Shown: positions 35,676 through 50,457, counted from the stretch's first letter. The stretch is 64,000 bases of DNA from Kiritimatiellia bacterium (GCA_045656285.1 JAZOQY010000032.1:6758-70757), one strand, 5' to 3'. Translations and numbers: made by a program. Notes: generated by a model not told the origin, from the letters alone.

Positions 35676-36590
35676 ATGACTATCAATGAATTGAATACAC
35701 GTTACGGTGCTCCCGGTCGCATCGTCTTTCACCAAGGCCATTGCGGTTATCCCGAGGTGGTGCTTGCCAACAAGTTCGGAACAGCCGAAGTCGCTCTTAT
35801 GGGCGCGAATGTTCTTTCGTACAAGCCTACGGGCCATGCGCCCGTGATATTCCGTCCCGCGAAGCGCGACTACAATCGCGGCGAATCGTTCCATGGCGGA
35901 ATTCCCGTCTGCTGGCCGCAGTTCGGACGACTCGCGATTCCCGGAATGTCGCCTCACGGATTCGCTAAAATAATGCCGTTTACCGTCCGCGCGACGCAGT
36001 ATTCCGAAGACATGACCGAAATTACGCTCGCGTTGAAATCATCTGAAGAAACGAAGAGCCTCTGGCCGTACGATTTCGATCTGGAGGTTAAGATTTCAGT
36101 TTCGATGAAGCTCAATCTGAAGCTCACGACGAGAAATACGGGCGAGGCGCCGTTTGAGTTCACGGCCGGGTTCCACCCGTATTTTCTCGTCAGAGAGCGC
36201 GACAACGTCGCGGTCAGAGGCCTGGACGGCTGCAAATACATTTTCGCCGTGGACATGTCGGAGCATGTCCAGGAGGGCGATCTCAAGATGAATACGGACG
36301 CTGATCATGTTTATACTTTGAAAGAAGAGCTTAAACATGAGTTCGCCATTCTCGATCCCGGACTTAAGCGCGCTTTGGCGATGGTTTCAACCGGCAATGA
36401 ATGCGCTGTTGTTTGGAATCCGGGTCCTGAAACGAAGCTTGCGGACTTGGAAGACGGCGATTGGCGCAAATTTATCTGCGTTGAGCCTGTTACAATCTGG
36501 CCGAAAGCCTTGGAGACGATTAAGCCCGGCGAGAAGCATGAACTCGTTGTTGCGATTCAGTCTTCTCAGGAAGAAGCCGAACAAAACTAA
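35676..36590 (+). CDS. D-hexose-6-phosphate mutarotase (aldose 1-epimerase family, YeaD-like)
   Basis: Motifs GGIPVCWPQFG and FHPYF. Length (304 aa) and layout match glucose-6-phosphate 1-epimerases. Confidence 0.8.
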   Translation: MTINELNTRYGAPGRIVFHQGHCGYPEVVLANKFGTAEVALMGANVLSYKPTGHAPVIFRPAKRDYNRGESFHGGIPVCWPQFGRLAIPGMSPHGFAKIMPFTVRATQYSEDMTEITLALKSSEETKSLWPYDFDLEVKISVSMKLNLKLTTRNTGEAPFEFTAGFHPYFLVRERDNVAVRGLDGCKYIFAVDMSEHVQEGDLKMNTDADHVYTLKEELKHEFAILDPGLKRALAMVSTGNECAVVWNPGPETKLADLEDGDWRKFICVEPVTIWPKALETIKPGEKHELVVAIQSSQEEAEQN

Positions 36591-36645
36591 AAATCTGTTC
36601 GTGGGCGAATATAAAACTTCATTTCGCGCATCACGAAAAATTTGC

Positions 36646-36774
36646 AATAGATATTTATGGATACTCTCGCGGGCGCCTGTGATCGACAGGAATGTCAGAA
36701 ATGTCATTCTGGCCGAAGCTAAACGCCGCGGATATGATACCGCTAAACTCATTTGGGTCGAACAATCGGAATAA
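36646..36774 (+). pseudogene. 3' remnant of a bacterial lipocalin (Blc) gene
   Basis: NRYLWILSRAPVIDRNVRNVILAEAKRRGYDTAKLIWVEQSE is colinear with the Blc C-terminus (DYLWILSRTP...SKFIWVQQ). No N-terminal two-thirds and no start codon are present. Confidence 0.6.
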
Positions 36775-36776
36775 CG

Positions 36777-36808
36777 TTACCCCCGCATTTTTAAAAATGC
36801 GGGGGTAA
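36777..36808. repeat. Perfect 32-nt palindrome (possible bidirectional terminator)
   Basis: ttacccccgcattttt|aaaaatgcgggggtaa, with 16 nt pairing perfectly to the next 16 nt. It starts 3 nt after the blc-remnant stop. Confidence 0.8.
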
Positions 36809-36959
36809 TATTCGGGCAGACATTTCGGGGCGTTTTTAGACCCGGCAGAAGTTGCCGGATACAGTTTTATTTCTCCTAAAAGTCGAGGTGTTTTAGGTTT
36901 CGCTTTTTCTCCTTGTAATGCCGTTTTTGCGCCTTTTTGTGCATAAAATCGAAGATATT

Positions 36960-36968
36960 TGGTATAAT
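36960..36968 (+). promoter_or_regulatory. Extended -10 element (TGgTATAAT) at the head of the island operon
   Basis: tttggtataat lies 23 nt upstream of the ATG at 36992. Confidence 0.4.
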
Positions 36969-36991
36969 ATTGTTCAGAAAACGAATGACAA

Positions 36992-38050
36992 ATGAGAACT
37001 AATACAACAGATGGCGTTCTTAAGCGCGATATACTGGAATGGCACGTTCCAGAGGAGGTCCTTGCGGTCTTGCTGAAAGACCGCTCGACGGGGCGCAATC
37101 TCATCTGGGCGACGGACGACTATACCGCGCGCGGCAAAGGCTTTGGCGTGAACGATGAGATACAGGTCGCGCAGATTGCGGACAGAGACCATCCCGTGAT
37201 TCGTCCTCGCGTGGACAAAAATGCGGAGGAACAACGGCAGCGCTCTGTCAAGCGCGCGGAAGTGTTCACGCCGTCATGGATATGCAACAAGCAGAACAAC
37301 CTTGTGGATGCCGCCTGGTTTGGATGGAAGAAACGCGATTCAAGTCCGTTCAATACCGAAATCGTCAAGTTTGATTCTGAAGCCGAATTCGGCTGGAAAT
37401 CAACTTGCGGCAAGCATATAAAATTCCCCAAAGGTAAGACCTGGCAGGAATATGTCAAGGCTCCGCGTCTGGAGGTGTCGTGCGGGGAGGCTCCGTATCT
37501 TGCAAGTAGATATGACACGGTAAGCGGCAGGATTATTCCCGTAGGCGAACGCATTGGGTTGCTGGATCGCAAGCTGCGCGTGATTACGGAGAATATCGGC
37601 ATGGGTGATATACAGGATTGGCTGTATTACGCCAAACGTGCGGTGCAAAGCATTTATGGCTTCGACTGGCAAGGCGACAATGTCCTTCTTGCGCGGGAGA
37701 ATGTGCTGTTTACGGTCGTTGAAAGCTTCAATGCGGATTTCTTCGGGGAGGAGAGTTCGGGGTTGAATTGGACGACGAAGTCATTGCTGGAGTTTGCCGA
37801 AATCATCAGCTGGAACATCTGGCAGATGGATGGAATCAAGTATGTCGTGCCGATGAGCTGTAAGCCGAAGGTGACGAAAGAAACGCTTCTTGACGGAACT
37901 GTTAAAACACATGTTGAAGAGTGTCCTGGTTGCAGTAAGAAAGGAAATCGTCAGCACTTTGGCACGTATTGCAAGGTCATGGATTGGAATACAGGCGAGC
38001 CGGTCGAATTCAGGGCGATTGCAGAAAACGGAGGTGGGCATGGCAAATAG
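36992..38050 (+). CDS. Hypothetical protein with methyltransferase-fold-like motifs but no (D/N)PPY; restriction-modification associated
   Basis: The 352-aa ORF leads the RM operon. AEVFTPSWICNKQNNLVD resembles gamma-class motif X, and RLEVSCGEAPYLASRYD resembles motif I. No NPPY or DPPY is present. A Cys pair (CPGCSKKG) lies near the C-terminus. Confidence 0.65.
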   Translation: MRTNTTDGVLKRDILEWHVPEEVLAVLLKDRSTGRNLIWATDDYTARGKGFGVNDEIQVAQIADRDHPVIRPRVDKNAEEQRQRSVKRAEVFTPSWICNKQNNLVDAAWFGWKKRDSSPFNTEIVKFDSEAEFGWKSTCGKHIKFPKGKTWQEYVKAPRLEVSCGEAPYLASRYDTVSGRIIPVGERIGLLDRKLRVITENIGMGDIQDWLYYAKRAVQSIYGFDWQGDNVLLARENVLFTVVESFNADFFGEESSGLNWTTKSLLEFAEIISWNIWQMDGIKYVVPMSCKPKVTKETLLDGTVKTHVEECPGCSKKGNRQHFGTYCKVMDWNTGEPVEFRAIAENGGGHGK

Positions 38051-39149
38051 AAACAGAAAGAAAACCGCGTCTGTCGAGGTTGTCGAAAGCGTGGAGAAAG
38101 AACTTTATGAGAACGTTCGAGCCTACATATCTGCGGCGCGTGCAAAGGTCTATACTGTAGCTAATGCGGAGATGGTAAAGGCATACTGGAACGTCGGACG
38201 CGAAATTGTCGAAAAACAGGGTGGCGCAGATCATGCGAAGTATGGGGATGGCTTGATTAAGAACCTGTCAGTGAAGCTGACTGCTGAATTTGGGCCTGGC
38301 TATACGGGGGCAAATTTGCGCTATATGCGACTTGTGTATCTTGCATTTCCGAATTGTCACACACTGTGTGACAAATTGAGTTGGTCGCATTATCGTCTGT
38401 TGGCAGCAGTGGATAAAATTGAAGCGCGTGATTTCTATTTGTCAGAGGCTGTGAAGTGTAAGTGGAGCGTTCGAGATTTGCAAAGACAGATTGAGACGCA
38501 GTTTTACCAGCGGCTGATTGCAAATCATGTCGATTTGTCTTCTGCGGGAAATCTTGTTAAGCGAGGGAAGGTGGAGGCACGGGACATCGTCCGTAGTCCT
38601 GCAATTCTGGAGTTTGCCGGTATTTCTCCAGCGGAGTACAAGGAAAAGGATCTTCAAACAGGGCTTGTCAAACACCTTAGCAAGTTCATGTTGGAACTGG
38701 GGCGTGGTTTTGCGCTTGTGCGTGAGCAGTGTCCCATACAGATCGGGAACGAGACTTATCATTGTGATCTCCTGTTCTACAACTTCATTGCTCGGTGCTT
38801 TGTCTTGATTGACCTTAAAGTCGGGAAGGTAACACCGCAGGATATCGGGCAGATGCAGCTCTACAAGCATTACTACGAACGTGAAATGATGAATCCCGGC
38901 GACAATCCGCCGATAGGAATTGTTCTTGGCTCCGACAGAGATGAGGCGGTCATCCGTTATACTCTCAACGAACATGAGCGCAATCTTTTTGCGGTGAAGT
39001 ACCATCTTGATCTGCCGACGGTCGAGGAGCTGAGCCTTGAATTGCAGCGTGAACGCGCCGCTATTGAAGAGGCCATGGCGCTTCGCGCCCTCTCGCCGGA
39101 TGATAAATGTGTCGAAGGGATTTCGTTGAAAGTTAAAAAAAACGAGTGA
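38040..39149 (+). CDS. DUF1016/YhcG-family PDDEXK nuclease-domain protein
   Basis: The N-terminal half (YWNVGREIVEKQGG...YGDGLIKNLSVKL...LSWSHYRLL) and the C-terminal HCDLLFYN...FVLIDLKVGK core match YhcG. ATG 38040 overlaps the upstream stop by 11 nt. Confidence 0.75.
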   Translation: MANRNRKKTASVEVVESVEKELYENVRAYISAARAKVYTVANAEMVKAYWNVGREIVEKQGGADHAKYGDGLIKNLSVKLTAEFGPGYTGANLRYMRLVYLAFPNCHTLCDKLSWSHYRLLAAVDKIEARDFYLSEAVKCKWSVRDLQRQIETQFYQRLIANHVDLSSAGNLVKRGKVEARDIVRSPAILEFAGISPAEYKEKDLQTGLVKHLSKFMLELGRGFALVREQCPIQIGNETYHCDLLFYNFIARCFVLIDLKVGKVTPQDIGQMQLYKHYYEREMMNPGDNPPIGIVLGSDRDEAVIRYTLNEHERNLFAVKYHLDLPTVEELSLELQRERAAIEEAMALRALSPDDKCVEGISLKVKKNE

Positions 39150-39179
39150 GATTACTAAATCGGTGTAAAGGAACTGAAA

Positions 39180-42100
39180 ATGATAACCATAAGCAACTTC
39201 AAAACTGTACTTTCGACATGTCTCGGTTTTGCACAGACTGATATACTAAAACCTAATACGTGGACGCGAGTGTTTCGCCACGGCAAAGACGGAAAATCGG
39301 ATTGTGTATTATCGGTAGATTTTGAGAAGCAGAAAATTGACTATGACGATGCTGGAATAGACATTGGCGGCGGCACGACGGTAAGCTTCGCGCCCGATGC
39401 GAACGGCAAGGTGCAAAACGAGAACTTTGTTGTTTTCGAGTGTGTTGTACGTCTCCTTTCCAAAGGCTATAAGGCGTGTGACATATTTCTTGAGAAGAAA
39501 CACACGCTCGGACACAGCCAAAAATCTGGACGTCTTGACATTACCGTAGCAAAGGATGGGAATGCCTATCTCATCATTGAGTGCAAGACCGCAGGAACAG
39601 AATACAAAAAGGCTCGCAAGGAACTTTTCGGCGATCCTGAAGGAAAGCAACTTTTCAGTTATTGGGCGCAGGCGCGTTCGACGAAGTGGCTGCAATTGTA
39701 CGCCTCTGATTATGATGCCACAAGTAACGCAATAGCGGTTGAAGAGGAAATCATCCGTTCCCATGATGATAGAAATATCGAACTACTTGCTTCTAAAGAT
39801 GCACCCATTGCGCTTTACAGATCAGCGTCGGAGGCTACAGATGCGTGGAGAGTCTGGGACGAGACTTATCACAAAGAGACATATAGGAGCCTTGTTTTTG
39901 GTGACAATTGTGTCGCGTACAATATCGGCATCCAGCCGCTTGTAAAAAAGGATTTGCGCCGGTTTACGCAGGAAGATGGATTTACGAACACTTTTCGCGA
40001 AATACTGCGGCACAATGCGATTAGCGACAAAGAAAACGCTTTCAACAAGCTGCTTTCGCTTTTCATTTGCAAATTTGTCGATGAAGCCCGTTGCAGCGAG
40101 CAGGACGTTGTTTCATTTCAGTATAAGGACGGTCAGGACGATTATTATTCCCTCTATGAACGGTTGCTTGCCCTCTTCCAGATTGGCATGAAGGACTATC
40201 TCAAGGAGGAGGTCTTCTATCTGGAGAACGACTACATAACAAAGACACTCGACACTTTTACGGGTAAAAAACGTAAAGCCCTAGAAGCGGAACTTAAAGA
40301 CAAGTTCCAGAAGACGAAGATGCTTTCTTGCCAGGTGTTCGCTTTCCGCGAGGTTTACAATGAAACGCTTTTCCTTCAGAATGGCAAGGTCCTGGTGGAG
40401 ATTGTGAAACTGATGCAGCAGTATCAGTTTGCGTATTCATCCAAGGAACAGTTGTTGGGTGATCTTTTCGAGAATCTTCTAAGCCAGGGGTTCAAGCAGG
40501 AAGCGGGGCAATTCTTCACGCCTACGCCTATAACGCGCTTTGTGTGGAACGCACTTCCCTACGAACGTTTCCTCAATTGCGCAAAGAAGTCAGTGCCGCG
40601 TGTCATAGACTTTGCTTGTGGATCGGGGCATTTCCTGACCGAGGGCATTGCTGCAATTTCGGATTTCTACCGAACCGCAGGACTCTCCAAGGAAAAGTTT
40701 CCCGATTCTGCTATTTCGCGCAAGTTCTTCGGAATCGAGAAGGACAATCGCCTTGCAAAGGTCTCAAAGATAGCAATGATTCTGAACGGCGCTCTTGAAG
40801 GTCGGATAAAGGCTGACGATGGACTTGAACATGACGAGGATTTTCTCGGCAAGAAACACTCTTTTGACATCCTTGTCGCGAATCCTCCATATTCCGTCGA
40901 CTCTTTCAAGACGCATGAATCTGTCACTGTGCAGAAAGCGTATGAGACAATTTCTCTAATGTCAATAGACTGTTCCCGCATTCAAAACGTCTTTGTGGAG
41001 CGAATGGAGCATCTGTTGAAATCAGGCGGCATTTCGGCAATTGTTCTGCCGTCGCCGTTTCTGACAAATGACGAAAGCGACACTAACAAGGCCCGTGAAA
41101 TATTGTTGCACAATTTCACGATAAGGGCCATTGCCGAATTCGGGAACAAAGCATTTGCCGAGACTGGGACGAATACCGTAATCCTTTTCCTTGAACACTT
41201 CAACTTTCCTCCGCGCAAAGCGGCCTTGCTGAACGATACGGTCGATGCGATCCTTTCCGGCGAGGAGCTGTCCGATTGGGAGGATAAAGAAATATTCTCT
41301 GCGTACCTTTCCAAGATTGGTGTCGCCGAAAATGACTATCTCGACGCAATGTCTGAAACGTTTTCGCCGGACACTTTCAGTACAGACTATTTCAAGGCTT
41401 ATGTTGGCGCATTGCTTTCTAAAGGTGCCATTGCGAAAGACGTGGAGAAAGCGGCGAAAGAAAAAGACCCAACGAAAAAAGCGGAAATCCAAAAGAGGAT
41501 AAAGGAGCGGTTTTACATCGCACTCAAAGAGACGGAGCGGGCAAAAATACTCGCATTTGCCATCGTGCGCAAGCAGAAGACTGTACTTGTCAAGTCGCCT
41601 ACTGACAATGACGAGCAGGAGCGTTTTCTCGGTTACAAGTTCTCGAAGCGCCGCAATTCGGAGGGCTTGAGCGAAACTGGTACAAGCCAGTTGACGAACA
41701 ACCACGACCGCGCCGACAAAACAAAAATTGCCTACGCCATAAAAAATGCTTTCGCGGACGATTATGTATTGCCCAATGGAATGAACCATGTCTCGGTTGT
41801 CAACACCGCAGATATGCTTGATTTCTCCCGTCCGTATTTTAATTGGTCTTTTTCCTTGTCATCCAAAGCAGTGTCAGCCATTTCAAGCAAGTTTCATCTT
41901 GTAAAGATGGCGGATGTTATCAACCTTCGTTCAGGACAAGACCTGACCCCAGAGCGTTATAATGACAATCAAGAAGGAATCCCGTATATCACGGGCGCCA
42001 GTAATTTTGAGGGAGGTGAAATTATAATAAACCGCTGGACTTCTTCGCCTACATCTATAGCGAACAAGGGGGACTTACTCATTACTTGTAAAGGTACTGT

Positions 42101-42464
42101 CGGCAAAATGGCATATTTGCATGTTGACAAGGCTCATATAGCTCGTCAGATAATGGGTATAACAGCAAAGAAAAACTTGAAGTTGTCATATCTGAAATAT
42201 ATTCTTGAAATTATTGTAGTTCATTTGTCTGCGCAGGCAAAAGGCATGATTCCTGGTATCAAGCGAGAGGACATATTAAACGCTGATATTCCATTGCCAC
42301 CACTTGATGTTCAGAAAAAGGTAGTTGCAGAGTGCGAAAAAGTGGATGAAGAATACAATACTTCGCGTATGGCGATAGAGGAATACCGCGCCAAAATCGC
42401 CAAGGTTTTTGCAGACCTTGAAGTTATAATTGCACAAAATGGGGGGGGGGGTATAAGAAAATGA
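39180..42464 (+). CDS. Single-chain restriction-modification enzyme: N-terminal PD-(D/E)XK nuclease, gamma-class N6-adenine methyltransferase and one C-terminal HsdS-type target-recognition domain (type IIG/IIB-like)
   Basis: GRLDITV...AYLIIECK nuclease motif. GQFFTPTPI (motif X), VIDFACGSGHFL (motif I) and LVANPPYS (motif IV). The last ~200 aa look like a Methylase_S TRD plus a conserved helix (KKVVAECEKVDEEYN...). Confidence 0.8.
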   Translation: MITISNFKTVLSTCLGFAQTDILKPNTWTRVFRHGKDGKSDCVLSVDFEKQKIDYDDAGIDIGGGTTVSFAPDANGKVQNENFVVFECVVRLLSKGYKACDIFLEKKHTLGHSQKSGRLDITVAKDGNAYLIIECKTAGTEYKKARKELFGDPEGKQLFSYWAQARSTKWLQLYASDYDATSNAIAVEEEIIRSHDDRNIELLASKDAPIALYRSASEATDAWRVWDETYHKETYRSLVFGDNCVAYNIGIQPLVKKDLRRFTQEDGFTNTFREILRHNAISDKENAFNKLLSLFICKFVDEARCSEQDVVSFQYKDGQDDYYSLYERLLALFQIGMKDYLKEEVFYLENDYITKTLDTFTGKKRKALEAELKDKFQKTKMLSCQVFAFREVYNETLFLQNGKVLVEIVKLMQQYQFAYSSKEQLLGDLFENLLSQGFKQEAGQFFTPTPITRFVWNALPYERFLNCAKKSVPRVIDFACGSGHFLTEGIAAISDFYRTAGLSKEKFPDSAISRKFFGIEKDNRLAKVSKIAMILNGALEGRIKADDGLEHDEDFLGKKHSFDILVANPPYSVDSFKTHESVTVQKAYETISLMSIDCSRIQNVFVERMEHLLKSGGISAIVLPSPFLTNDESDTNKAREILLHNFTIRAIAEFGNKAFAETGTNTVILFLEHFNFPPRKAALLNDTVDAILSGEELSDWEDKEIFSAYLSKIGVAENDYLDAMSETFSPDTFSTDYFKAYVGALLSKGAIAKDVEKAAKEKDPTKKAEIQKRIKERFYIALKETERAKILAFAIVRKQKTVLVKSPTDNDEQERFLGYKFSKRRNSEGLSETGTSQLTNNHDRADKTKIAYAIKNAFADDYVLPNGMNHVSVVNTADMLDFSRPYFNWSFSLSSKAVSAISSKFHLVKMADVINLRSGQDLTPERYNDNQEGIPYITGASNFEGGEIIINRWTSSPTSIANKGDLLITCKGTVGKMAYLHVDKAHIARQIMGITAKKNLKLSYLKYILEIIVVHLSAQAKGMIPGIKREDILNADIPLPPLDVQKKVVAECEKVDEEYNTSRMAIEEYRAKIAKVFADLEVIIAQNGGGGIRK
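42441..42451 (+). repeat. G11 homopolymer tract at the end of the R-M-S gene, 9 nt before the hsdS-like ATG
   Basis: Direct count gives aaaat-ggggggggggg-tataagaaaATG. It encodes the GGGG near the C-terminus of the 1094-aa protein. Confidence 0.95.
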
Positions 42465-43027
42465 TTGATATAAGTGTTATCAATGTTGACTCAATAGACC
42501 CTAGTGCGTATCCAGACAAAGAGTTTACGTATATTGACATTGACGCGGTTCAGAATGGTGAAGGAACGTTTGCGACCGATAAGAAGATTCTTGGTTCTAA
42601 CGCTCCGTCAAGAGCGCGCAGGATTGCAAGAAGCAACTCTACCCTTGTCTCTACTGTTCGCCCTAATCTGAAAGGCTTTGCTTATGTAGAGAATGAAATA
42701 AAGGATGCTGTGTATTCGACGGGTTTTGCAGTCTTAAAAAGCAAAGATACAGATGTTCTTCTAGACAAGATGATTTACTATATGTTCATGTATTCCAACG
42801 ACCTTATGGAGCAAATGATAGCCGCCATGCCGAAAGGATCCTATCCGTCAATCAATAAGGATGACATAGAGAACTTTATTATCCCAATCCCGCCTATTGA
42901 CGAACAGAAGAAAATTGTTGCAGAAGTTGTGAACTATGAATCCAAAATCACCAAGGCGAAAGCGGTCATGGATTCCGCACCAGCTCGCAAACAGGCTATA
43001 CTGCGAAAGTATGGAGTGATTGCATGA
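42461..43027 (+). CDS. Half-size HsdS-like specificity subunit (single target-recognition domain)
   Basis: 188 aa, with a TRD-like N-terminal part and a conserved C-terminal helix PIPPIDEQKKIVAEVVNYESKI. The start overlaps the upstream stop (ATGA). Confidence 0.75.
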   Translation: MIDISVINVDSIDPSAYPDKEFTYIDIDAVQNGEGTFATDKKILGSNAPSRARRIARSNSTLVSTVRPNLKGFAYVENEIKDAVYSTGFAVLKSKDTDVLLDKMIYYMFMYSNDLMEQMIAAMPKGSYPSINKDDIENFIIPIPPIDEQKKIVAEVVNYESKITKAKAVMDSAPARKQAILRKYGVIA

Positions 43028-43029
43028 TA

Positions 43030-43193
43030 AGTTCTTGGTATAGATTTGATACCGACTGGTCGCGTCCAATTCCTGAGATCGACGCGCAGCTATACGCGAA
43101 TACGGCCTCACCGAAGCCGAGCAGAAGTTCATCGAATCCATGATCAAGCCGATGGAGCCTAGCGGCGCTTTCCGCGGTAGTTTGAATTTCTAA
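43030..43193 (+). pseudogene. Frameshifted 3' remnant of another restriction/modification-type gene (C-terminal tail only)
   Basis: One frame reads SWYRFDTDWSRPIPEIDAQLY. The adjacent frame reads REYGLTEAEQKFIESMIKPME. This LYxxYGLTEEE..FIExxIKPM tail is one I associate with large RM/helicase enzymes. There is no start codon and a TGA at 43074. Confidence 0.45.
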
Positions 43194-43206
43194 TGAAAGG
43201 AGAAGT

Positions 43207-44136
43207 ATGAAGCAATATGTTAAGGTGATGTTGGGGCGTAAAAGCTGTATGGCGGACAAGTGCCATGCGGATGGATTTATCGGCGCGGGATTCCTCTCAA
43301 AAGTCGATTTTTCGAAAAATCTTTATGATGAGTGGCGAGAATTCAACAAGAAGTATATCCCGGTCTATTTGAAGGAATGCCCGGGGAAGAGTAGGGTCGC
43401 GGCGGGTTTAAGCTGCGGTTATCTTTGGACGGTTTGCAAAGGGCTTCGGACTGGTGATGTTGTCCTTTCGCCGACAGGGAACAAGGGCGAACTGTACGTT
43501 GGCGAGGTGATCGGTGACTATTATTACGTGAAGGGCAACGACTTTCCGCACCGTCGTAAGGTTAAATGGTACAACGTCATCCTTCATCGCGAAGACATGA
43601 GTGAAGATCTCCAGCATTCCTCTGGAGCAATTGGAACCTGTGCAGATCTTTCAAAATATGCACAGGAGATCGAGAAGCTAATCGGCACGAACGCGCCTGT
43701 TCGAGTCATGACGAATGATCCAGACATCGAGGACCCGAGTGTCTTTGCGATGGAGAAGTATCTCGAAGAGTTCCTTGTTTCGAATTGGAAGAATACCGAC
43801 CTTGGCAAGAAATACGATATCTTCAGCGACGAGGGCGAGACGATAGGAGAGCAGTATCCGACCGATACGGGGCCCATTGACATACTGGCCATCAGCAAAG
43901 ACCGCAAGACAGTACTTGTTATTGAACTTAAGCGAGGTCAGGCCTCTGATCGCGTCGTCGGTCAGATCCAACGCTACATGGGTTACGTGAAGGATGAAGT
44001 CCTCGAAAAAGGACAGAAGTTGAAGGGTTTAATCATCGGTCTTAAACCTGATCAAGGTCTCAAGCGGGCGCTTTCTATGTGTCCTGATATCGAATTCCGC
44101 CGTTACAAAGTCGACTTCAAGTTGCTAAAGGATTGA
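43207..44136 (+). CDS. NucS/DUF91-like PD-(D/E)XK nuclease with an unassigned N-terminal domain
   Basis: RBS aaaggaga. The C-terminal half (LEEFLVSNWKNTDLG...GPIDILAISKDRKTVLVIELKRGQASDRVVGQIQRYMGYV) matches the NucS-type nuclease core. Confidence 0.65.
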   Translation: MKQYVKVMLGRKSCMADKCHADGFIGAGFLSKVDFSKNLYDEWREFNKKYIPVYLKECPGKSRVAAGLSCGYLWTVCKGLRTGDVVLSPTGNKGELYVGEVIGDYYYVKGNDFPHRRKVKWYNVILHREDMSEDLQHSSGAIGTCADLSKYAQEIEKLIGTNAPVRVMTNDPDIEDPSVFAMEKYLEEFLVSNWKNTDLGKKYDIFSDEGETIGEQYPTDTGPIDILAISKDRKTVLVIELKRGQASDRVVGQIQRYMGYVKDEVLEKGQKLKGLIIGLKPDQGLKRALSMCPDIEFRRYKVDFKLLKD

Positions 44137-44149
44137 GGAGGTTGAATGG

Positions 44150-44218
44150 ATGCTTAACTTCATCATTAACTACGACATCAAATACCGCATGGGCGACGAA
44201 CTGAACGCGGAGGAGTAA
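44150..44218 (+). CDS. Possible 22-aa ORF (MLNFIINYDIKYRMGDELNAEE)
   Basis: It is preceded by gaggagg. There is no other support. Confidence 0.2.
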   Translation: MLNFIINYDIKYRMGDELNAEE

Positions 44219-44243
44219 TAAATTTGAAAGGATTACATACGGC

Positions 44244-44459
44244 ATGGGAGAAGAATTAGTTTTTGGCAAGGGGTTGCCAGGTCGTGTGGCCCTCGCCAAC
44301 TCGCGGGATCGGCTTGTTGCTCCGATGAATCCTGCTGGAGGGGCTATGGCAATTTGCACTCGTGATCGGCTGATTTCGCCGTGTAATCCGTCCACACGTA
44401 CACAGGATCGATTGCCGACACCAACACGTCCACAGGGTTCGGGAACGCAACGGCATTAA
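44244..44459 (+). CDS. Small protein (71 aa) with three DRLxxPx(N/R)P repeats
   Basis: Repeats lie at 44307-44333, 44364-44390 and 44406-44432. At the conserved residues they differ from each other at synonymous codon positions. The RBS is weak. Confidence 0.45.
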   Translation: MGEELVFGKGLPGRVALANSRDRLVAPMNPAGGAMAICTRDRLISPCNPSTRTQDRLPTPTRPQGSGTQRH

Positions 44460-44475
44460 TTTGAGGAGGGTAATT

Positions 44476-44580
44476 ATGAATGATAGAGGAGATGTTGTAA
44501 AATCGGTGGGCGGCGTCGTGCAAGGTACTGCAGACCGATTGTCGGCACCTGCAAACCCCGTGACGCGTCCTGTGAAATAG
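44476..44580 (+). CDS. Small ORF (34 aa) carrying a fourth DRLxxPxNP motif, in frame with the downstream SLATT-like ORF across a single TAG
   Basis: AGGAGG lies 6 nt before ATG 44476. The motif is at 44533-44559. TAG at 44578-44580 is followed directly by the same-frame ORF starting at 44581. Confidence 0.45.
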   Translation: MNDRGDVVKSVGGVVQGTADRLSAPANPVTRPVK

Positions 44581-44622
44581 GTGGACGTTTTGGGCGAATC
44601 GCTGACAGATCGCTTCTGGATA

Positions 44623-45135
44623 ATGAAGCATGGGCTGCAACGCTCGTATTATTATTACGAGTCGCGCCGTTGTTTTTGGATGTTGTTTTTGATTGTCACA
44701 AAAGCAGCAGAGTTCTTTGTTGGCTATCCAGCTGTCGCGTCATTAATAGATGGGAAACTGAGCGTTTGGGTTTGGGTTCGGGCCATCGTTGCTACCGGAT
44801 CATCTGTCTTGACTTTGTGCCAGGCGACTTCGCGCAGAGACATCCTTTTGCATCAGATGCGAGAGATGGGCGCGTGCTTGGGGATGATGCCTTATCGCTC
44901 GGAAGACGAGACAGAGGAGTTGTACCTAAAAATCAAGATGCGTCGCGAAAAGGCAGAACGTAAGGACGATGTAATTTTCGAAGTCGTGGATGCGATGTGC
45001 TATAACAAAGCATGCAAGACACTTGGTGCTGCAGAACGTTGGCGTATCACCCCTTGGCAGAAGTTTTTCGGATGGTGGTTGCCGATACCATATACGATGA
45101 ACGCGAAAATGGAACGGGTGGAAAACGGTGTGTAG
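44623..45135 (+). CDS. Two-TM membrane protein, SLATT-like putative effector
   Basis: Two hydrophobic helices (CFWMLFLIVTKAAEFFVGYPAVASLI and VWVWVRAIVATGSSVLTLC) are followed by a ~100-aa soluble tail. It lies directly upstream of the RT gene. An alternative start is GTG 44581. Confidence 0.6.
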   Translation: MKHGLQRSYYYYESRRCFWMLFLIVTKAAEFFVGYPAVASLIDGKLSVWVWVRAIVATGSSVLTLCQATSRRDILLHQMREMGACLGMMPYRSEDETEELYLKIKMRREKAERKDDVIFEVVDAMCYNKACKTLGAAERWRITPWQKFFGWWLPIPYTMNAKMERVENGV

Positions 45136-45162
45136 GCAACAGTTTGTAAATAAAACGGAGCG

Positions 45163-48100
45163 ATGGCGAACAGTAGTGATAGTATTTTTACATTAAAGAA
45201 TGCAACGACGGCTTATAAAAAAGCGAAAGTCGATGCATGGAAATTGCATACGATTAATGCTACCGATTTTATGCAGTTTGAGGTCGGCTTTAAGGAGAAC
45301 ATTGTTGATTTCTTGGCGGATATTTCTTGGGTTGATTATCAAAAGATTTTGTCTGATGATTGGCTGGGAACATGGTCATATCGGATAAAGAAAGTCCATC
45401 CATTGGAGGAGGAGGTCGCCGGTGAAATATTTTCAGCTCCAGTAAAACAATTAAAAGGGTGCAGTGTCAAGAGTGTTGATTTCAGGGTGTTTGCAGATCC
45501 GTCGGTTAAATTTCATTTGCTGAGTGCATTTTGGATTGCTATGGTTGCGCCAAAATACAATGCGAAACTGCGGAGTTGCGTTTATGGTAATTGTCTTCGA
45601 CATGGGCAGAATCCTCGTGCCGCAGGATCGTTTGTTGGATATATTGGTAAATTGCAGGAGTGGAAGAAACGGGCAATTGGCACAACGAAGGAATTGTTAA
45701 ATCAGAAAAAAGAGGCAATCGTTGTCACGGCGGATGCAACGGCATTTTACCATTCGTTGAAGCCAGACTTTCTATTGAATGAAACCTATTTAAGAAGAGT
45801 CGGTATAAATTTGACGGATGAAGAACGGGGGCTGACAAGGTTGTTGATATCTGCTATAAATTACTGGGCATCACAAACACCGCTAAAAAGTGGGCTCCCA
45901 GTAGGATTGCCTGTGTCGGCCGTGATTGCAAATCTTGCGCTAGTTGAATTTGACTCAATTGTGTGTGACAGGGTGAAACCTGCTTATTATGGTCGATATG
46001 TTGATGATTTGTTGTTTGTATTTGAAAGGGGCGAAGGAATAAATAATAGGACGGAAGTGTGGCAGCATATTCAACGAGCGTCGAGGAATTTCAGATTAGA
46101 GTTTGTCGGCGGGGATAAGCCTGTGTTGGATTTTGTCCCACAATATGAGGCCGATATTACGAACTCCCGTATTTCATTCAATGGTGAAAAATGCAGGGTG
46201 ATGTTTTTAGATTCAAAATCAGGTGTGGGTTTTATCCGCAGATTGGAAAATCAGATTCGAGAAGTTTCCAGTGAGTTTCGCCTGCTGCCTGAACATATTG
46301 GGGACGCTAAGAGTGTTGAACACCGATTACTGAAACTCGTAGATGCTGACGGAGAGATAGTGGATTCATTTCGTAAAATCGAGATGATGACATTCAGGAA
46401 GGCTGATTTCACGGGATTTGTTCAAGAGATGGAGTTTTTCCAGCGAACATTGATTCCGGCGATGTGGCAAGCACAAAGGCAAGCTTTTTATCGGTTTGTG
46501 TGTGATTACATATTGTCGCTAAAACACTATGACGAATATGAGGCAAATTTATTCCAGATAATCACGCTTGCGGTGAGTTGTGGGGATTTTGTTGAGTTGA
46601 GCAATATTATAGATTCATTGAATGCCCTGGCGAATGAGATTTTGGGCGTTAAATCGTTGTGTGTTGCCCATCCCAAGCAAAGGACTGGGCAGATGCATGA
46701 AATGCAATTCTTGATTACGAAGCAGAATGTTGCGGATCAATGGTTGAGTCGATTGTATGTTCGAATCGCTGACTGCGTTCAGAGAAGTTTTAATTGTCGT
46801 GGTGACGCATCGTATCGTGCGCGATACGATGCGTTTCGTGAGAAATTTCTGGTAAATGCAGGAATCCGATTACTTCCTTCGGCACGCGTTTCAACCTATA
46901 ATCAGCATGCGCTAATTCATGATGTAAGTGAGTTTAGGTATGTTGATCATTTATATCGCAAGGAAATACGTTCCAATAGAATTATCTCTGATAATGGCGG
47001 CATGAGATTGTTATCTGTTGGGTTGAAAATGGACGATGAGGTTAAGTCACTGTTTGATGATTTGTTTTTGGCTGGAGTAGATGCAGTCTATAAAAATGTT
47101 TTGAAAGATGTTTATAAATCTGATGAGATTCCTTATGGGATGTTGTTTCCAACGCGACCTCTCGTTCAGCATGATTTATTCTGGTTGGAAGATGCGAGCT
47201 TGTGGGTAGATAATTCTGATGTAATAATGCAGGCATTCCGTGGGTATGCTGCCAAATTGACAAACAGGGAGCGTGTAAATGATGTGGATATTTTATCTGT
47301 GCCGACGCGGCGAAATCATAAAGTGAGAATTGCGTTGGTAAATATGAAAACTAAAAATGAGGATGTCTACGCAAATTTTATCGAGATTTCACCAGAGTTG
47401 CGATTTCATAGGTTTTGCAAGATTGTTGAGTTAATTAATCGAGTGTTACGGAATGAAAAGAACTTGGATTACATTGTGCTTCATGAGTTGGCGTTGCCTG
47501 CCGAATGGTTTGTGCCGATTGCTGAAAGGTGTGCAATTAGTGGTGTATCTATAATCTCGGGCATTGATTATCTGGTTACTGAAAAGGATAAATATTGCAT
47601 AAATCCTGTGTGGATGTCGCTTGTCGGTGAGAAGGATGGTGGATTTCGTCAGACAGTATATATTTGTGAGAATAAGAAAGATTTCTCGTATGAAGAAGAA
47701 AAAGAAATATCTGACAGAGGCTATCAAAATGATCCTTACAAGACGAAAGAAGATCATGCCATAATTAGGCATGGAGATTTTTGTTTTTCAACGCTGATTT
47801 GTAGCGAACTAACGGATATAGAAAATCGGACGCGTCTACGAGGACTGATTGACGCATTGTTTGTGGTGGAGTGGAATAAGGATGTTAATTCGTTTGCGCC
47901 GATTGTAGAAGCGACCGCGTTGGATCTGAGCGCTTATGTGATTCAATGTAATAATAACGAGTATGGTGATAATAGAATTCGTGTGCCGGCAAAAGAAAAG
48001 CACTTGCGTGATTTGATTCGGTTGAGGGGAGGAGACGCTCCTTATTATGTGTGTGAATCACTTGATGTCAATGCATTGCGCGCACATCAAGAAGAATGGT

Positions 48101-48213
48101 TTGCGAATCGTGATGGGGCCCGTACGACACGAGAGGACTGGGCGTTCAAACCATTACCCAGAGGGTATAAGTTATTTCGATTTCGTTTCCCCGATTCTGA
48201 ATGTGCGGAATAG
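45163..48213 (+). CDS. Defence-type reverse transcriptase (UG/Abi class) with a helical middle region and a C-terminal nitrilase (C-N hydrolase) domain
   Basis: RT motifs VTADATAFYHSL, GLPVGLPVSAVIANLAL and YGRYVDDLLFV (YVDD at 45997-46008). The nitrilase triad candidates are E775 in IVLHELALP, K838/K839 in ICENKKDF and C880 in STLICSEL. Confidence 0.8.
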   Translation: MANSSDSIFTLKNATTAYKKAKVDAWKLHTINATDFMQFEVGFKENIVDFLADISWVDYQKILSDDWLGTWSYRIKKVHPLEEEVAGEIFSAPVKQLKGCSVKSVDFRVFADPSVKFHLLSAFWIAMVAPKYNAKLRSCVYGNCLRHGQNPRAAGSFVGYIGKLQEWKKRAIGTTKELLNQKKEAIVVTADATAFYHSLKPDFLLNETYLRRVGINLTDEERGLTRLLISAINYWASQTPLKSGLPVGLPVSAVIANLALVEFDSIVCDRVKPAYYGRYVDDLLFVFERGEGINNRTEVWQHIQRASRNFRLEFVGGDKPVLDFVPQYEADITNSRISFNGEKCRVMFLDSKSGVGFIRRLENQIREVSSEFRLLPEHIGDAKSVEHRLLKLVDADGEIVDSFRKIEMMTFRKADFTGFVQEMEFFQRTLIPAMWQAQRQAFYRFVCDYILSLKHYDEYEANLFQIITLAVSCGDFVELSNIIDSLNALANEILGVKSLCVAHPKQRTGQMHEMQFLITKQNVADQWLSRLYVRIADCVQRSFNCRGDASYRARYDAFREKFLVNAGIRLLPSARVSTYNQHALIHDVSEFRYVDHLYRKEIRSNRIISDNGGMRLLSVGLKMDDEVKSLFDDLFLAGVDAVYKNVLKDVYKSDEIPYGMLFPTRPLVQHDLFWLEDASLWVDNSDVIMQAFRGYAAKLTNRERVNDVDILSVPTRRNHKVRIALVNMKTKNEDVYANFIEISPELRFHRFCKIVELINRVLRNEKNLDYIVLHELALPAEWFVPIAERCAISGVSIISGIDYLVTEKDKYCINPVWMSLVGEKDGGFRQTVYICENKKDFSYEEEKEISDRGYQNDPYKTKEDHAIIRHGDFCFSTLICSELTDIENRTRLRGLIDALFVVEWNKDVNSFAPIVEATALDLSAYVIQCNNNEYGDNRIRVPAKEKHLRDLIRLRGGDAPYYVCESLDVNALRAHQEEWFANRDGARTTREDWAFKPLPRGYKLFRFRFPDSECAE

Positions 48214-48419
48214 AGGAGGAAATACAGAACCATGTCGAAAGGTGCGTTGAACACAGAGAGTAATAAATTGTCGCGGTTGTGGATAGTTTGTTGTGCGGGC
48301 TGGTTGGGAAGATCGTTACCCGACGTGAGGAAAATTGCAAGCGGCTTTGAGGCGATGAGTTCGGCCGGGCGGACGTGGGGTGTGGCTTGGTGTGATATAA
48401 TTTGAAACGGAGGTAAAGG

Positions 48420-48551
48420 ATGAATAAAAATGTGACGCGGAGACCCAGGAAAGTCCCGAGTTATACATTTAGCGACAAGATGATTTCCCTTGTCGCTGAA
48501 ATAACAGAAGTCGCTACGCACCTTGAAATGCGCGAAAGAAACAATAAATAG
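48420..48551 (+). pseudogene. 43-aa ORF resembling the N-terminus of a Fic/DOC-family protein (truncated remnant)
   Basis: MNKNVTRRPRKVPSYTFSDKMISLVAEITEVATHLEMRERNNK. The YTFSxKMIxLVAEI pattern recalls Fic_N starts. It has its own tgtgatataat element and ggagg RBS, but stops after 43 aa. Confidence 0.3.
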
Positions 48552-48652
48552 CTAAGTTGAATAATTAGGAGTTGTTGAGATGTCCAAGCAAGAAATCATA
48601 AAAGGCGGGGATATTCCCGGTTCCGATTTGCAATCCGCCGTCTGTTCTTTTT

Positions 48653-48661
48653 TGATATAAT
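48653..48661 (+). promoter_or_regulatory. Extended -10 element (TGaTATAAT) of iorA
   Basis: ttttgatataat lies 32 nt upstream of the ATG at 48694. Confidence 0.45.
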
Positions 48662-48693
48662 ATGATTTTATCAATAACACAGTCAGGAAGAAT

Positions 48694-50457
48694 ATGAAAA
48701 AGTTTTTAAGCGCCAACGAAGCCGTAGCCCACGCCGCCGCTCAGGCCGGCTGCATTGTCGCGTCCGCCTATCCGGGCACGCCCTCGACCGAGATTCTCGA
48801 GAATGTCGCCAAGTTCAAGGATACCGTAAGGTGCGAATGGGCGGTGAACGAGAAGGTTGCAATGGAGACGGCGATCGGCGCGTCCATGGCCGGATTCCGC
48901 TCGCTTACCGCGATGAAGCACGTCGGTCTCAACGTAGCGATGGATCCTTTGATGACGTTCACGTACGTCGGCGCGACGGGCGGTATGGTCATTATTTCGG
49001 CAGACGATCCCGGTCTCCACTCCTCCCAGAACGAGCAGGACAACCGCAATCTCGCCAAGTTCGCGCGCGCGGCGCTTCTTGAGCCGGCCGACAGCCAGGA
49101 GGCCTACGATATGGTTCTCGAGGCCTTCGACATCTCCGAGAAGTTCGAGGTTCCGGTAATCATCCGTCTTACGACCCGTACGAGCCATTCCTCTTCGCTC
49201 GTCGAGCTCGGCGACTTCAATCCCAAGCCGCATCCCCAGATCCCCTACGTCAAGAACATCAAGAAGACGATTCCCGTTCCTATGTTTGCGCGCGGCCACC
49301 GTCTCGCCGCCCAGGAGCGCACGGCCGCGATGTCCGCCGCGTCCTGCGAAAGCGCGCTCAACAGGATCGTCCACGGCCGCAAGGATCTCGGCATCGTGAC
49401 GAGCGCCGTCGCGTATCAGTACGTAAAGGAGATTTTCCCCGAGTTTTCGATCCTTAAGCTCGGTTGGACGAATCCGCTGCCCAAAAAGCTCATTTCCGAC
49501 TTCGCGGCCTCCGTCGAGAAGCTTCTCGTCGTCGAAGAGCTCGATCCCTTCCTCGAAGATCAGATTCGCGCGATGGGCATCAAGGTTGTCGAGCACAAGA
49601 CCGAGCTCAACATGCTCGAGCTCAACGCCGACAGGCTCCAGAACCTTCGCCATGAGCTTCTCGGCGACGTCCCCGAGGCGAAGGTCGCCTCTGTCGACGC
49701 GACTCTCCCGACCCGTCCGCCCGTACTTTGCGCGGGCTGCGGCCACCGTGGCGTATTCTACATTTTGAACAAGCTTAAGGCGACGGTCACAGGCGACATC
49801 GGCTGCTACACGCTCGGCGCGTTTCCTCCGCTCAACGCGATGGACACGACGATCTGCATGGGCGCGTCGATCGGCAACGCTGCAGGTATGAAGAAGGCCG
49901 GCTACAAGGGCCGCGTCGCCGCCGTGCTCGGCGACTCCACGTTCTTCCATTCGGGAATGACCGGTATTTTGAGCGCGCTTTACAACAATACTCCCGTTAC
50001 CACGATCGTTCTCGATAACCGCATCACCGGCATGACCGGACATCAGGAGAATCCGGGCAGCGGTAAGACGCTCGCGGGCGATGCAGCTCCCGTTTCCGAA
50101 ATCGCCGAGATCGCCAAGTCGATGGGCTACAAGAAGGTTGTTACCGTCCCCGCTGAAGATCTTGCCGAGCTCGAGCGCGTTCTTATCGACGCGATGGACG
50201 GCGACGAGGCGGCGCTCGTCATCGCCTACGCTCCCTGCCGCATCGCGGCGAAGCTCACCAAGGCGGGTCTCGTCGAGGTCGATGCCGAGAAGTGCAAGGC
50301 TTGCGGCGCGTGCTTCAAGATGGGCTGCCCCGCGATGAAGCGCGGCAAGGAGCTCCGTCCCGGCGCGTTCCAGATGGTCGTCGACGCCAATCAGTGCGCC
50401 GGCTGCACCCAGTGTTCCCAGGTCTGCAAATTCGACGCGATCAAGCGCGTTCGGTAA
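48694..50457 (+). CDS. iorA: Indolepyruvate:ferredoxin oxidoreductase alpha subunit
   Basis: TPP-enzyme layout (AYPGTPSTEI, GDSTFFHSG) and two C-terminal 4Fe-4S motifs (CKACGACFKMGCP and CAGCTQCSQVC). Length is 587 aa. Confidence 0.85.
   Translation: MKKFLSANEAVAHAAAQAGCIVASAYPGTPSTEILENVAKFKDTVRCEWAVNEKVAMETAIGASMAGFRSLTAMKHVGLNVAMDPLMTFTYVGATGGMVIISADDPGLHSSQNEQDNRNLAKFARAALLEPADSQEAYDMVLEAFDISEKFEVPVIIRLTTRTSHSSSLVELGDFNPKPHPQIPYVKNIKKTIPVPMFARGHRLAAQERTAAMSAASCESALNRIVHGRKDLGIVTSAVAYQYVKEIFPEFSILKLGWTNPLPKKLISDFAASVEKLLVVEELDPFLEDQIRAMGIKVVEHKTELNMLELNADRLQNLRHELLGDVPEAKVASVDATLPTRPPVLCAGCGHRGVFYILNKLKATVTGDIGCYTLGAFPPLNAMDTTICMGASIGNAAGMKKAGYKGRVAAVLGDSTFFHSGMTGILSALYNNTPVTTIVLDNRITGMTGHQENPGSGKTLAGDAAPVSEIAEIAKSMGYKKVVTVPAEDLAELERVLIDAMDGDEAALVIAYAPCRIAAKLTKAGLVEVDAEKCKACGACFKMGCPAMKRGKELRPGAFQMVVDANQCAGCTQCSQVCKFDAIKRVR

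Follow-up and report, generated by a model that had tools for sequence, protein, structure and literature searches.

A reverse transcriptase (RT) gene preceded by a small membrane-protein gene in a bacterial defence island raises the question of whether the two form a single defence system. We address this question for a 64,000-nucleotide stretch of DNA from a Kiritimatiellia bacterium (GCA_045656285.1 JAZOQY010000032.1:6758-70757), hereafter called the window. It encodes an RT fused to a nitrilase-superfamily domain and, directly upstream, a small protein with two predicted transmembrane (TM) helices, here termed TM2. An earlier sequence-only reading regarded the two as a UG/Abi-class defence RT and its dedicated SLATT-like partner. 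Our answer has two parts. The large protein, as judged from profile scores and conserved residues, is an intact UG5-large/DRT11 RT-nitrilase and a divergent addition to a known family. The conserved association of TM2 is with two upstream peptide genes, pepA and pepB, not with RTs; we lean towards the view that the RT-nitrilase and this three-gene cassette are independent modules, the cassette being neither the canonical nor a specific partner of the RT.

The family identity of the large protein is indicated first by profile searches. The PADLOC model PDLC03780 (RT_UG5-nitrilase) matches residues 6-1005 with an E value of 3.7e-213 and 708.6 bits, whereas a second UG5-nitrilase model, the stand-alone UG5-small nitrilase and the UG5-small RT reach 147, 136 and 90 bits, respectively, and the Drt1a match, confined to the nitrilase part, has 80 bits. 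These scores bear out the UG/Abi-class RT fused to a C-N hydrolase that had been read from the motifs, and they assign it to UG5-large, a class 3 UG/Abi RT (Mestre et al., 2022; PMC9226505), not to UG1/DRT1. Pfam RVT_1, a search that the sequence-only reading had itself proposed, matches residues 176-313 (E = 2.2e-9). The retron and group II intron NCBIfam models reach 32-37 bits against cut-offs of 235-300, which argues against a clustering with retron, group II intron or diversity-generating retroelement (DGR) RTs. A tblastn search of plasmids matched the DRT11 locus itself (Sinorhizobium meliloti RMO17 pSymA, 109344-112316; E = 6e-136), and full-length alignment to DRT11 gives 32.8% identity. 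A relative is carried by 437 representative genomes, mostly of Proteobacteria, Actinobacteria and Verrucomicrobiota, the nearest being a Kiritimatiellia metagenome-assembled genome (MAG) at 56% identity; tblastn of the RT against phage records gave no match.

The second line of evidence is the conservation of the catalytic residues. Both open reading frames (ORFs) and the RT and nitrilase motifs quoted for them lie where they had been placed: D191 in motif A (IVVTADATAFY), GLPVGLPVSAVIANLAL at 244-260 and YVDD at 279-282 in the RT part, and E775 in VLHELALP, K838 in ENKKDF and C880 in LICSEL in the nitrilase part, where E882 is also conserved. Across 27 aligned homologues, with identity down to 29%, D191, GLPVGLPVSAVIANLAL and YVDD are invariant and E775, K838, C880 and E882 are invariant or nearly so; the YVDD and E-K-C signatures are intact, as had been claimed. 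In the alignment to DRT11, its YVDD (294-297), C876 and E878 correspond to window residues 279-282, C880 and E882, while K833 aligns beside K838, the invariant lysine of the multiple alignment. A profile of the homologues also finds the DRT1 structure 9yfd (E = 1.7e-23) through the nitrilase domains; the catalytic C1116 of DRT1 aligns with C880, and the glutamate of its SELAV motif with E775.

The third line is the predicted fold. At E<=0.01 the Pfam CN_hydrolase hidden Markov model did not match the C-terminal domain, so the fold was checked directly with AlphaFold2 and Foldseek. The model, built from the 27-sequence alignment, has a predicted local distance difference test score (pLDDT) of 84.8 and a predicted template modelling score of 0.86. 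Its C-terminal third matches nitrilase-superfamily enzymes with a Foldseek probability of 1.0 and a target TM-score of about 0.65; among them are a Pyrococcus amidase (6ypa/1j31), beta-ureidopropionase, N-carbamoylputrescine amidohydrolase, formamidase AmiF, nitrilases and Lnt. For the N-terminal part, the matches are to DRT6, DRT9, DRT2, G2L4, group II and DGR RTs. Helices at residues of about 351-700 separate the two, in agreement with the helical middle region of some 400 residues described from sequence, and loops at residues 84-99, 395-408 and 509-513 are modelled with low confidence. The protein thus carries every testable hallmark of UG5-large/DRT11 except the optional downstream TM gene.

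The small upstream protein, TM2, is less easily placed. Its two hydrophobic segments have Kyte-Doolittle (KD) maxima of 1.53-1.55, just below the usual 1.6; each holds a conserved charged residue, and a four-residue loop lies between them. The AlphaFold2 model, of moderate confidence (pLDDT 66), shows a long helical hairpin (H8-56/H62-101) followed by shorter helices. The soluble C-terminal part is conserved (DDV..EV.DAM.YNKA, FFGWWLP), and the conservation of an N-terminal SLTDRFW in homologues, ahead of an internal ATG, supports the GTG (or a nearby TTG) start. TM2 alone found no match in Pfam, NCBIfam, PADLOC or PDB sequences, in Pfam and PADLOC not even at E<=10, and Foldseek of its model against the PDB returned generic coiled coils only (E>=0.5). 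A profile search of 1.8 billion representatives recovered about 50 remote relatives of the same size, one of them annotated Kiritimatiellae. Some of these weakly match SLATT_1, _4, _5 and _6, DUF4231, the CBASS 2TM effector models and RTasSLATT; among 46 of the remote relatives, five match SLATT_1 and ten match the 2TM effector model PDLC00712. For the family consensus, the best two Pfam matches are SLATT_4 (0.015) and SLATT_1 (0.016), over the two-helix core and below gathering, and in PADLOC it matches PDLC00712 at E = 8e-6 and RTasSLATT at 0.0045.

The description of TM2 as a two-TM SLATT-like protein therefore holds in part: two moderately hydrophobic segments are present and the consensus resembles SLATT, but TM2 itself matches no SLATT profile. 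The term SLATT-like is reasonable but weakly supported. TM2 shares with the SLATT and CBASS 2TM effectors (Pfam SLATT_1-6, PDLC00712) an N-terminal helix with R..Y..R..F, two hydrophobic helices, a short loop, a helical extension and a location in defence islands. It differs from them in reaching no Pfam gathering threshold, in carrying an additional conserved domain at its C-terminus (LD..CHN, GWWLP.PY) and in being paired with small peptides, not with a nucleotide-signal generator. None of the outcomes that the sequence-only reading had set against itself was observed, whether an RT clustering with retron, group II intron or DGR RTs, a C-terminal domain unlike C-N hydrolases or an upstream protein lacking a two-TM topology.

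The small peptides are the products of pepA and pepB, which had been noticed upstream as unusual repeat ORFs and which proved to be real. In the window the three pepA repeats read SRDRLVAPMNP, TRDRLISPCNP and TQDRLPTPTRP. Elsewhere pepA has 64-75 residues with SRDRL(V/M/I)(A/P)PMNP and TQDRLP.P.(R/K)P, and the further copy, TRDRLISPCNP, is a 14-residue insertion of the window's clade; the pepB family has 34-45 residues with TADRL(P/S)(A/P)P.NP. Across 11 loci, start codons and frames of pepA and pepB are conserved and indels come in whole codons. Pairwise ratios of non-synonymous to synonymous substitution (dN/dS) are 0.12-0.34 for pepA, 0.06-0.27 for pepB and 0.07-0.16 for TM2; all three are genuine genes under purifying selection. 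The TAG stop of pepB abuts the GTG of TM2 in the window, and 0-12 nt separate pepB stop and TM2 start across all loci. None of the three matches Pfam or PADLOC. The cassette was seen in metagenome assemblies only: a scan of 185,579 representative genomes found no TM2-family member and three scans of viral contigs no TM2 relatives. It matches no library searched and is more novel than the RT-nitrilase. Between the nuclease gene and pepA, at 44147-44215, lies a tiny ORF (MLNFIINYDIKYRMGDELNAEE) that resembles a peptide stretch (..SFTINYDIISFWWDNATEGD..) at the same place before pepA in locus L011 (about 290-366); it may represent either a third small gene or regulatory DNA that is conserved.

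On the arrangement of these genes, 44244-45135 would be a separate portable cassette of two small hydrophilic peptides and TM2, with TM2 translationally coupled to pepB. Such a cassette would serve in defence or in the manner of a toxin-antitoxin pair, TM2 being a membrane-damaging effector that the labile peptides, or their translation, would restrain. Our tentative proposal, which we hold to be possible though short of probable, is that the cassette is a self-contained, undescribed conflict module: a divergent SLATT-like membrane toxin, gated in its activity or its synthesis by one or two DRL..P.NP peptides, portable between islands and perhaps a plug-in effector for whichever defence gene lies downstream (UG5 RT-nitrilase, PD-T4-7, PDC-M24 or NucS-like nuclease). 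The peptides might instead be regulatory leader ORFs, with their DRL(P/A)P.NP motifs stalling ribosomes and gating translation of TM2 and the downstream gene by stop-start coupling, which would make the cassette a sensor of translation state. The short pepB-TM2 distance in all loci, the PPP or PxP runs within the motifs and the tightly spaced downstream gene in most loci speak for this. We nevertheless regard it as unlikely, as conservation spans most of both peptides and extends beyond the proline motif, peptide dN/dS (0.06-0.34) is similar to that of TM2, and two peptides with three to four motif copies exceed the usual need of a leader peptide; nor was an attenuator-like structure found, although no search was aimed at one. 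The leader-ORF idea concerns the workings of the cassette and is compatible with either answer on its coupling to the RT.

For that coupling, the evidence comes from comparison of loci. We compared 17 metagenomic loci with TM2 homologues (57-97% identical). A pepA homologue lies upstream of TM2 in all 15 loci with enough upstream sequence, and so does pepB where detectable. What follows TM2 is variable. An RT-nitrilase is found there only in the window's sub-clade (L001-3, L020 and L024, RT identity 79-96%); outside the sub-clade TM2 is followed by a gene for PD-T4-7 (L009), PDC-M24A/B (L013, L015), a RapZ_C-domain protein (L007, L008), a NucS-like PDC-S02 nuclease (L011) or multi-TM proteins (L014, L016), and in L018 a bSEFIR TIR protein lies 1.6 kb beyond TM2. 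Cassettes about as divergent from that of the window as the L024 cassette is (TM2 84-86% identical; L011) have no RT. Two further ideas on these loci were discarded: a conserved spacer after TM2 serving as a docking site for variable genes, as the junctions are not conserved between loci, and the upstream ORFs of L005 and L006 as partners, one being a proline-rich overlap artefact and the other a soluble protein.

Seen from the RT, the result is the same. Relatives at 58, 54, 46 and 37% identity are without TM2. Neither a TM2-family gene nor a DRL-motif peptide was found near the UG5-large RT in any of 80 genomic loci, and TM2-family genes are absent from five metagenomic UG5-large loci outside the sub-clade. 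Co-occurrence is limited to RTs at least 79% identical and is lacking in 85 other UG5-large loci and at least seven other TM2 contexts. A small hydrophobic ORF next to the UG5-large RT is rare (upstream in 2 of 74 and downstream in 3 of 80 genomic loci), which agrees with the 31 of 299 UG5-large members reported to encode a TM protein downstream (Mestre et al., 2022; PMC9226505). A remote TM2 relative, P0271 (59 contigs), resides in a HicAB, YafQ/ParE and Gp49-HTH toxin-antitoxin hotspot without an RT and is preceded by its own 42-residue peptide (MSDNTQKSVNTGNPQLTTFTRNTVPTRPSSSE...), which resembles pepB and pepA. This peptide-2TM pair (L106-L115) mostly stands directly after a gene for a 333-residue RNase_T (DEDD exonuclease), the others being near a phage integrase. 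The earlier claim that TM2 is the dedicated partner of the RT is not supported, given the empty genomic loci, the variable downstream genes and the constant upstream pepA.

Several observations nevertheless weigh against treating the two as independent modules. TM2 and the RT share a strand and are separated by 27 nt, in which no convincing terminator was seen. Promoter and terminator scans were close to shuffled expectation and leave operon boundaries undefined. DNA homology between L024 and the window runs from 44209, just before pepA, to 48212 at the RT stop, at 77% identity and with unrelated flanks. Within the sub-clade, pepA-pepB-TM2-RT travels as a block and is probably co-transcribed. 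In other loci, too, the next gene follows TM2 closely or overlaps with it, and such spacing would fit equally well a generic accessory module that couples to any downstream gene. SLATT proteins are accessory or effector partners of other UG/Abi RTs, namely DRT10/UG17, AbiA and UG23 (PMC9226505). A TM protein has been reported as necessary in the Escherichia coli UG5-large system (PMC9226505), and an RT copy without its 1-TM partner could be inactive.

These points lead to an alternative in which TM2, with or without pepA and pepB, is a functional partner of the RT-nitrilase, specific or generic: a membrane effector or accessory activated or checked by the DNA product of the RT, as proposed for DRT10 and Drt1b. 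The close spacing described above is in its favour, as is the inheritance of the pepA-pepB-TM2-RT block with different flanks in L024 and in the lineages of the window/L020 and L001-3. SLATT-RT pairs are known, and the DRT1 study speculates that Drt1b could resemble the DNA-gated channel of Hailong (PMC13275509). DRT10/UG17 (RT, non-coding RNA (ncRNA) and SLATT; bioRxiv 10.64898/2026.04.29.721553), AbiA, UG23 and UG28 have an RT gene beside a SLATT-type 2-TM gene, as here, and in the DRT10 model the DNA product triggers the membrane effector (bioRxiv 10.64898/2026.04.29.721553). However, those RTs belong to class 1 or 2 and are template-dependent with an ncRNA, and their SLATT association is family-wide, whereas the association seen here is that of one sub-clade and involves a TM2 with peptide partners of its own. 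The missing TM2 family in the 80 genomic and five metagenomic loci and the RT-less L011-type cassettes also stand against a functional partnership; moreover, the TM partner that is canonical for UG5 is another protein, encoded beyond the far end of the RT gene, and DRT11 is active without any TM protein (PMC13436386). We consider the partnership somewhat unlikely and continue to favour independent modules.

That canonical partner is a downstream 1-TM protein, in the arrangement 'RT-nitrilase + 1TM' (Rousset et al., 2022; PMC9122126). Compared with L001, the 3' end of the nuclease gene, pepA, pepB and TM2 are 99% identical at the DNA level, and the RT core (45463-46060) matches the RT gene of L001 (6001-9057) at 99-100% identity. 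From 46063 to 48213, covering the linker and nitrilase, identity is only 59-83%, and no homology extends past the RT stop codon. This identity profile marks the RT-nitrilase gene as a recombinant mosaic, in line with the incongruence reported between the RT and nitrilase phylogenies of UG5 (PMC13436386). The divergent linker-nitrilase co-varies with a downstream 1-TM gene, present in L001-3 and L024 and absent in the window, L020 and L021; this suggests a match between the 1-TM partner and the enzyme's C-terminal part. The 1-TM protein of L001-3 and L024, probably the canonical 1TM partner of UG5-large, has a single, strongly hydrophobic N-terminal helix (residues 2-33, KD 2.31) and no match in Pfam or PADLOC. 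The layout of these relatives is exactly that of the E. coli RT-nitrilase + 1TM of P4-like satellites (PMC9122126; Mestre clusters 85/1858, PMC9226505), with which the window shares the UG5 RT-nitrilase fusion but not the downstream 1-TM gene. The TM2 of the window differs from the TM protein of these systems in lying upstream, having two helices and being unrelated in sequence, and it has no PADLOC match to Drt1b or other TM models. In L024, an Abi_alpha/PDC-S47 gene follows the 1-TM gene.

No hydrophobic ORF was found in the window at 48214-48693. At the position of the 1-TM gene, the window, L020 and L021 have only a non-hydrophobic ORF of 55-57 residues. That of the window, 57 residues long, is 79% identical in L020 and L021, whose RT is 96% identical; it is probably not an RT partner, and an origin as a remnant of the 1-TM gene was ruled out, as it shows no similarity and is not hydrophobic. 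An E. coli plasmid UG5-large locus was likewise rejected as a source of the canonical TM partner, its downstream 156-residue protein being unrelated and not hydrophobic. After many proteobacterial UG5-large genes, an ORF of about 575-597 residues follows, often with overlapping stop and start, and several of these genes are also preceded by a non-membrane ORF of about 176-189 residues; the three-gene layout is recurrent, and the loci concerned are L040, L044, L045, L048, L050, L053, L056, L060, L072, L078, L081-L083, L085, L086, L094 and L104.

The mosaic gene could mean that the RT-nitrilase is incomplete, recombination having replaced its C-terminal two-thirds and deleted the 1-TM effector gene, so that it would be intact in sequence but not protective alone. 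A mosaic gene that loses homology to L001 at its stop codon, the presence of the 1-TM gene after the 79-81% alleles and its absence after the 96-100% alleles, and the reported need for the TM protein in E. coli (PMC9226505) speak for this. Yet the reading frame is complete and all catalytic residues are kept, the layout without a 1-TM gene recurs on at least three independent contigs, and no TM neighbour is present in about 90% of UG5-large (PMC9226505), nor a downstream one in 77 of the 80 genomic loci here. DRT11, too, is active without a TM protein (PMC13436386), and the downstream TM gene is not obligatory for UG5-large, since DRT11 lacks one. We judge an incomplete system very unlikely and take the RT-nitrilase as complete in what follows.

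The mechanism of this class, which the sequence-only reading called unresolved, has been partly understood since 2026, and all statements on the window protein here rest on homology with these relatives. DRT1, DRT5S and DRT5L make DNA with no template and with protein as the primer, and purified DRT5S and DRT5L form covalent DNA adducts without a template (PMC13275509); we read these two names as UG5-small and UG5-large, since the paper places both with class 3. In DRT1, both the RT and the nitrilase active sites are required, and covalent semi-random DNA adducts lead to tetramer and filament assembly (Neville et al.; PMC13275509). Assembly both enables and autoinhibits the nitrilase, activation of which requires a phage ssDNA helicase, and priming occurs in an unresolved loop after the RT domain, on Ser402, a residue that other class 3 DRTs are stated not to conserve (PMC13275509). 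On its own, the DRT11 gene confers protection on S. meliloti when the multiplicity of infection is low (Sanchez-Nieto et al., 2026; PMC13436386); its defence requires both domains, shows an Abi-like phenotype and involves no TM protein and no detectable ncRNA (PMC13436386). The mutagenesis of DRT1 and DRT11 agrees with the earlier suggestion that both activities of the window protein are probably used (PMC13275509, PMC13436386).

By analogy with DRT1 and DRT5L/DRT5S, the RT-nitrilase of the window most likely needs no RNA template. An Rfam scan of 36000-49500 for RT-associated ncRNA gave two sub-threshold chance matches only, which, together with the mere 27 nt before the RT start, is consistent with a template-free mode. 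The enzyme would prime DNA synthesis on a side chain of its own and form short semi-random DNA adducts; the linker is a candidate site of this priming, as the position of loop 395-408 may be comparable to that of the DRT1 priming loop. The adducts would drive oligomerization, keeping the nitrilase domain poised but silent until a phage replication factor releases it. In the released state, the C-N hydrolase (E775-K838-C880) would break down or convert an essential small molecule, resulting in abortive infection. With no 1-TM gene downstream, the window copy would be a minimal system of a single gene, as DRT11 is.

The closest experimental parallels differ from the window protein in distinct ways. 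DRT11 (S. meliloti RMO17, WP_040120558.1; PMC13436386) belongs to the same PADLOC family, is about 1000 residues long and likewise joins an RT, through a helical linker, to a C-N hydrolase; the Lys, Cys and Glu are conserved along with YVDD, and it too lies in a defence island with no downstream TM gene and no candidate ncRNA. It is only 33% identical, however, and comes from another phylum, the window being from a gut or rumen MAG, and the RT of the window is preceded by pepA-pepB-TM2. DRT1/UG1 (Klebsiella; 9yfd; PMC13275509) is likewise a class 3 RT with a fused nitrilase whose domains align and whose catalytic Cys and Glu match. A template-free, protein-primed adduct mechanism regulating the nitrilase is probably shared with it. 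The differences are the 80 bits of the Drt1a model, a length about 200 residues greater (about 1200-1300 against 1016), and a Ser402 stated to be conserved in DRT1 only; filaments and a swapping of C-terminal domains are described for DRT1.

The genomic setting agrees with the earlier description of a defence island: a methyltransferase (MTase), two different PDC-S02 candidate defence nucleases of the PD-(D/E)XK type and a type IIG restriction-modification (RM) gene with an S subunit precede the cassette (Table 1). Island GC content is 41-49%, against 55-60% in the flanks, and the cassette and RT form its right-hand end. The right edge is the RT stop codon, beyond which lie about 480 bp of non-coding or weakly coding DNA (48214-48693) and then the gene for a core-genome indolepyruvate ferredoxin oxidoreductase (48694-50457). 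Neither boundary of the island is marked by a tRNA or an integrase. In the region 39180-43027, the 1094-residue type IIG RM fusion has HSDR_N, N6_Mtase and a single specificity domain, and its stop overlaps the start of a separate 188-residue half S subunit, an arrangement that looks like a split or shufflable specificity layout. The NucS-like nuclease gene, upstream of the cassette here, has a 98% identical copy downstream of pepA-pepB-TM2 in L011.

Table 1. Positions of the features discussed, in window coordinates unless a relative is named.
Feature	Position	Strand	Description	Basis
Defence island remainder	36992..44136	+	five genes upstream of pepA, low GC	Pfam/PADLOC/NCBIfam matches
Type II MTase	36992-38050	+		library profile matches
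YhcG/DUF1016-type PDC-S02 nuclease	38040-39149	+		library profile matches
Type IIG RM	39180-42464	+		library profile matches
S-subunit half	42461-43027	+		library profile matches
NucS-like PDC-S02 nuclease	43207-44136	+	NucS_C/DUF8426 type	library profile matches
pepA	44244..44459	+	71 aa, three DRL..P..P repeats	alignment, dN/dS
pepB	44476..44580	+	34 aa, TADRL[SP]AP.NP motif	sequence, alignment, dN/dS
TM2	44581..45135	+	184 aa, GTG start; divergent SLATT-like, two hydrophobic helices	hydropathy, AlphaFold2, alignment
TM2 helix, aa 31-55	44671-44745	+		hydropathy
TM2 helix, aa 60-82	44758-44826	+		hydropathy
RT-nitrilase	45163..48213	+	1016 aa; UG5-large fusion gene, DRT11-type, class 3 UG/Abi RT	PADLOC, DRT11 alignment, AlphaFold2
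RT palm/fingers core	45460..46152	+	aa ~100-330, D191 and YVDD (nt 45997-46008)	Pfam RVT_1, DRT11 alignment, Foldseek
Recombination breakpoint	46060..46063	.	within RT gene	sliding-window identity, blastn against L001
Alpha-helical linker	46153..47304	+	aa ~331-714	AlphaFold2 secondary structure, pLDDT
C-N hydrolase domain	47305..48117	+	aa ~715-985	Foldseek, alignments
Catalytic codon E775	47485-47487	+		alignments
Catalytic codon K838	47674-47676	+		alignments
Catalytic codon C880	47800-47802	+		alignments
57-aa ORF after RT	48232..48405	+	not hydrophobic, maximum KD 0.69	
1-TM gene of relatives	L001 9281-9850; L024 4477-5049		189-190 aa, directly after RT	

For the UG5-large family, the RT-nitrilase of the window adds little beyond a divergent member from a gut or rumen source, although it could be a useful comparison point beside the characterized DRT1 and DRT11. 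Its natural alleles, with the same RT core, a swapped linker-nitrilase and a 1-TM gene present or absent, point to the part of the protein that co-evolves with the TM partner. To call every membrane protein beside a defence RT its SLATT effector would be wrong here. If pepA-pepB-TM2 encodes a membrane toxin gated by peptides, or an effector add-on that is portable, the cassette would represent a new and very compact type of toxin-antitoxin or defence module and, if this is true, a simple system for studying how SLATT-like proteins stay silent.

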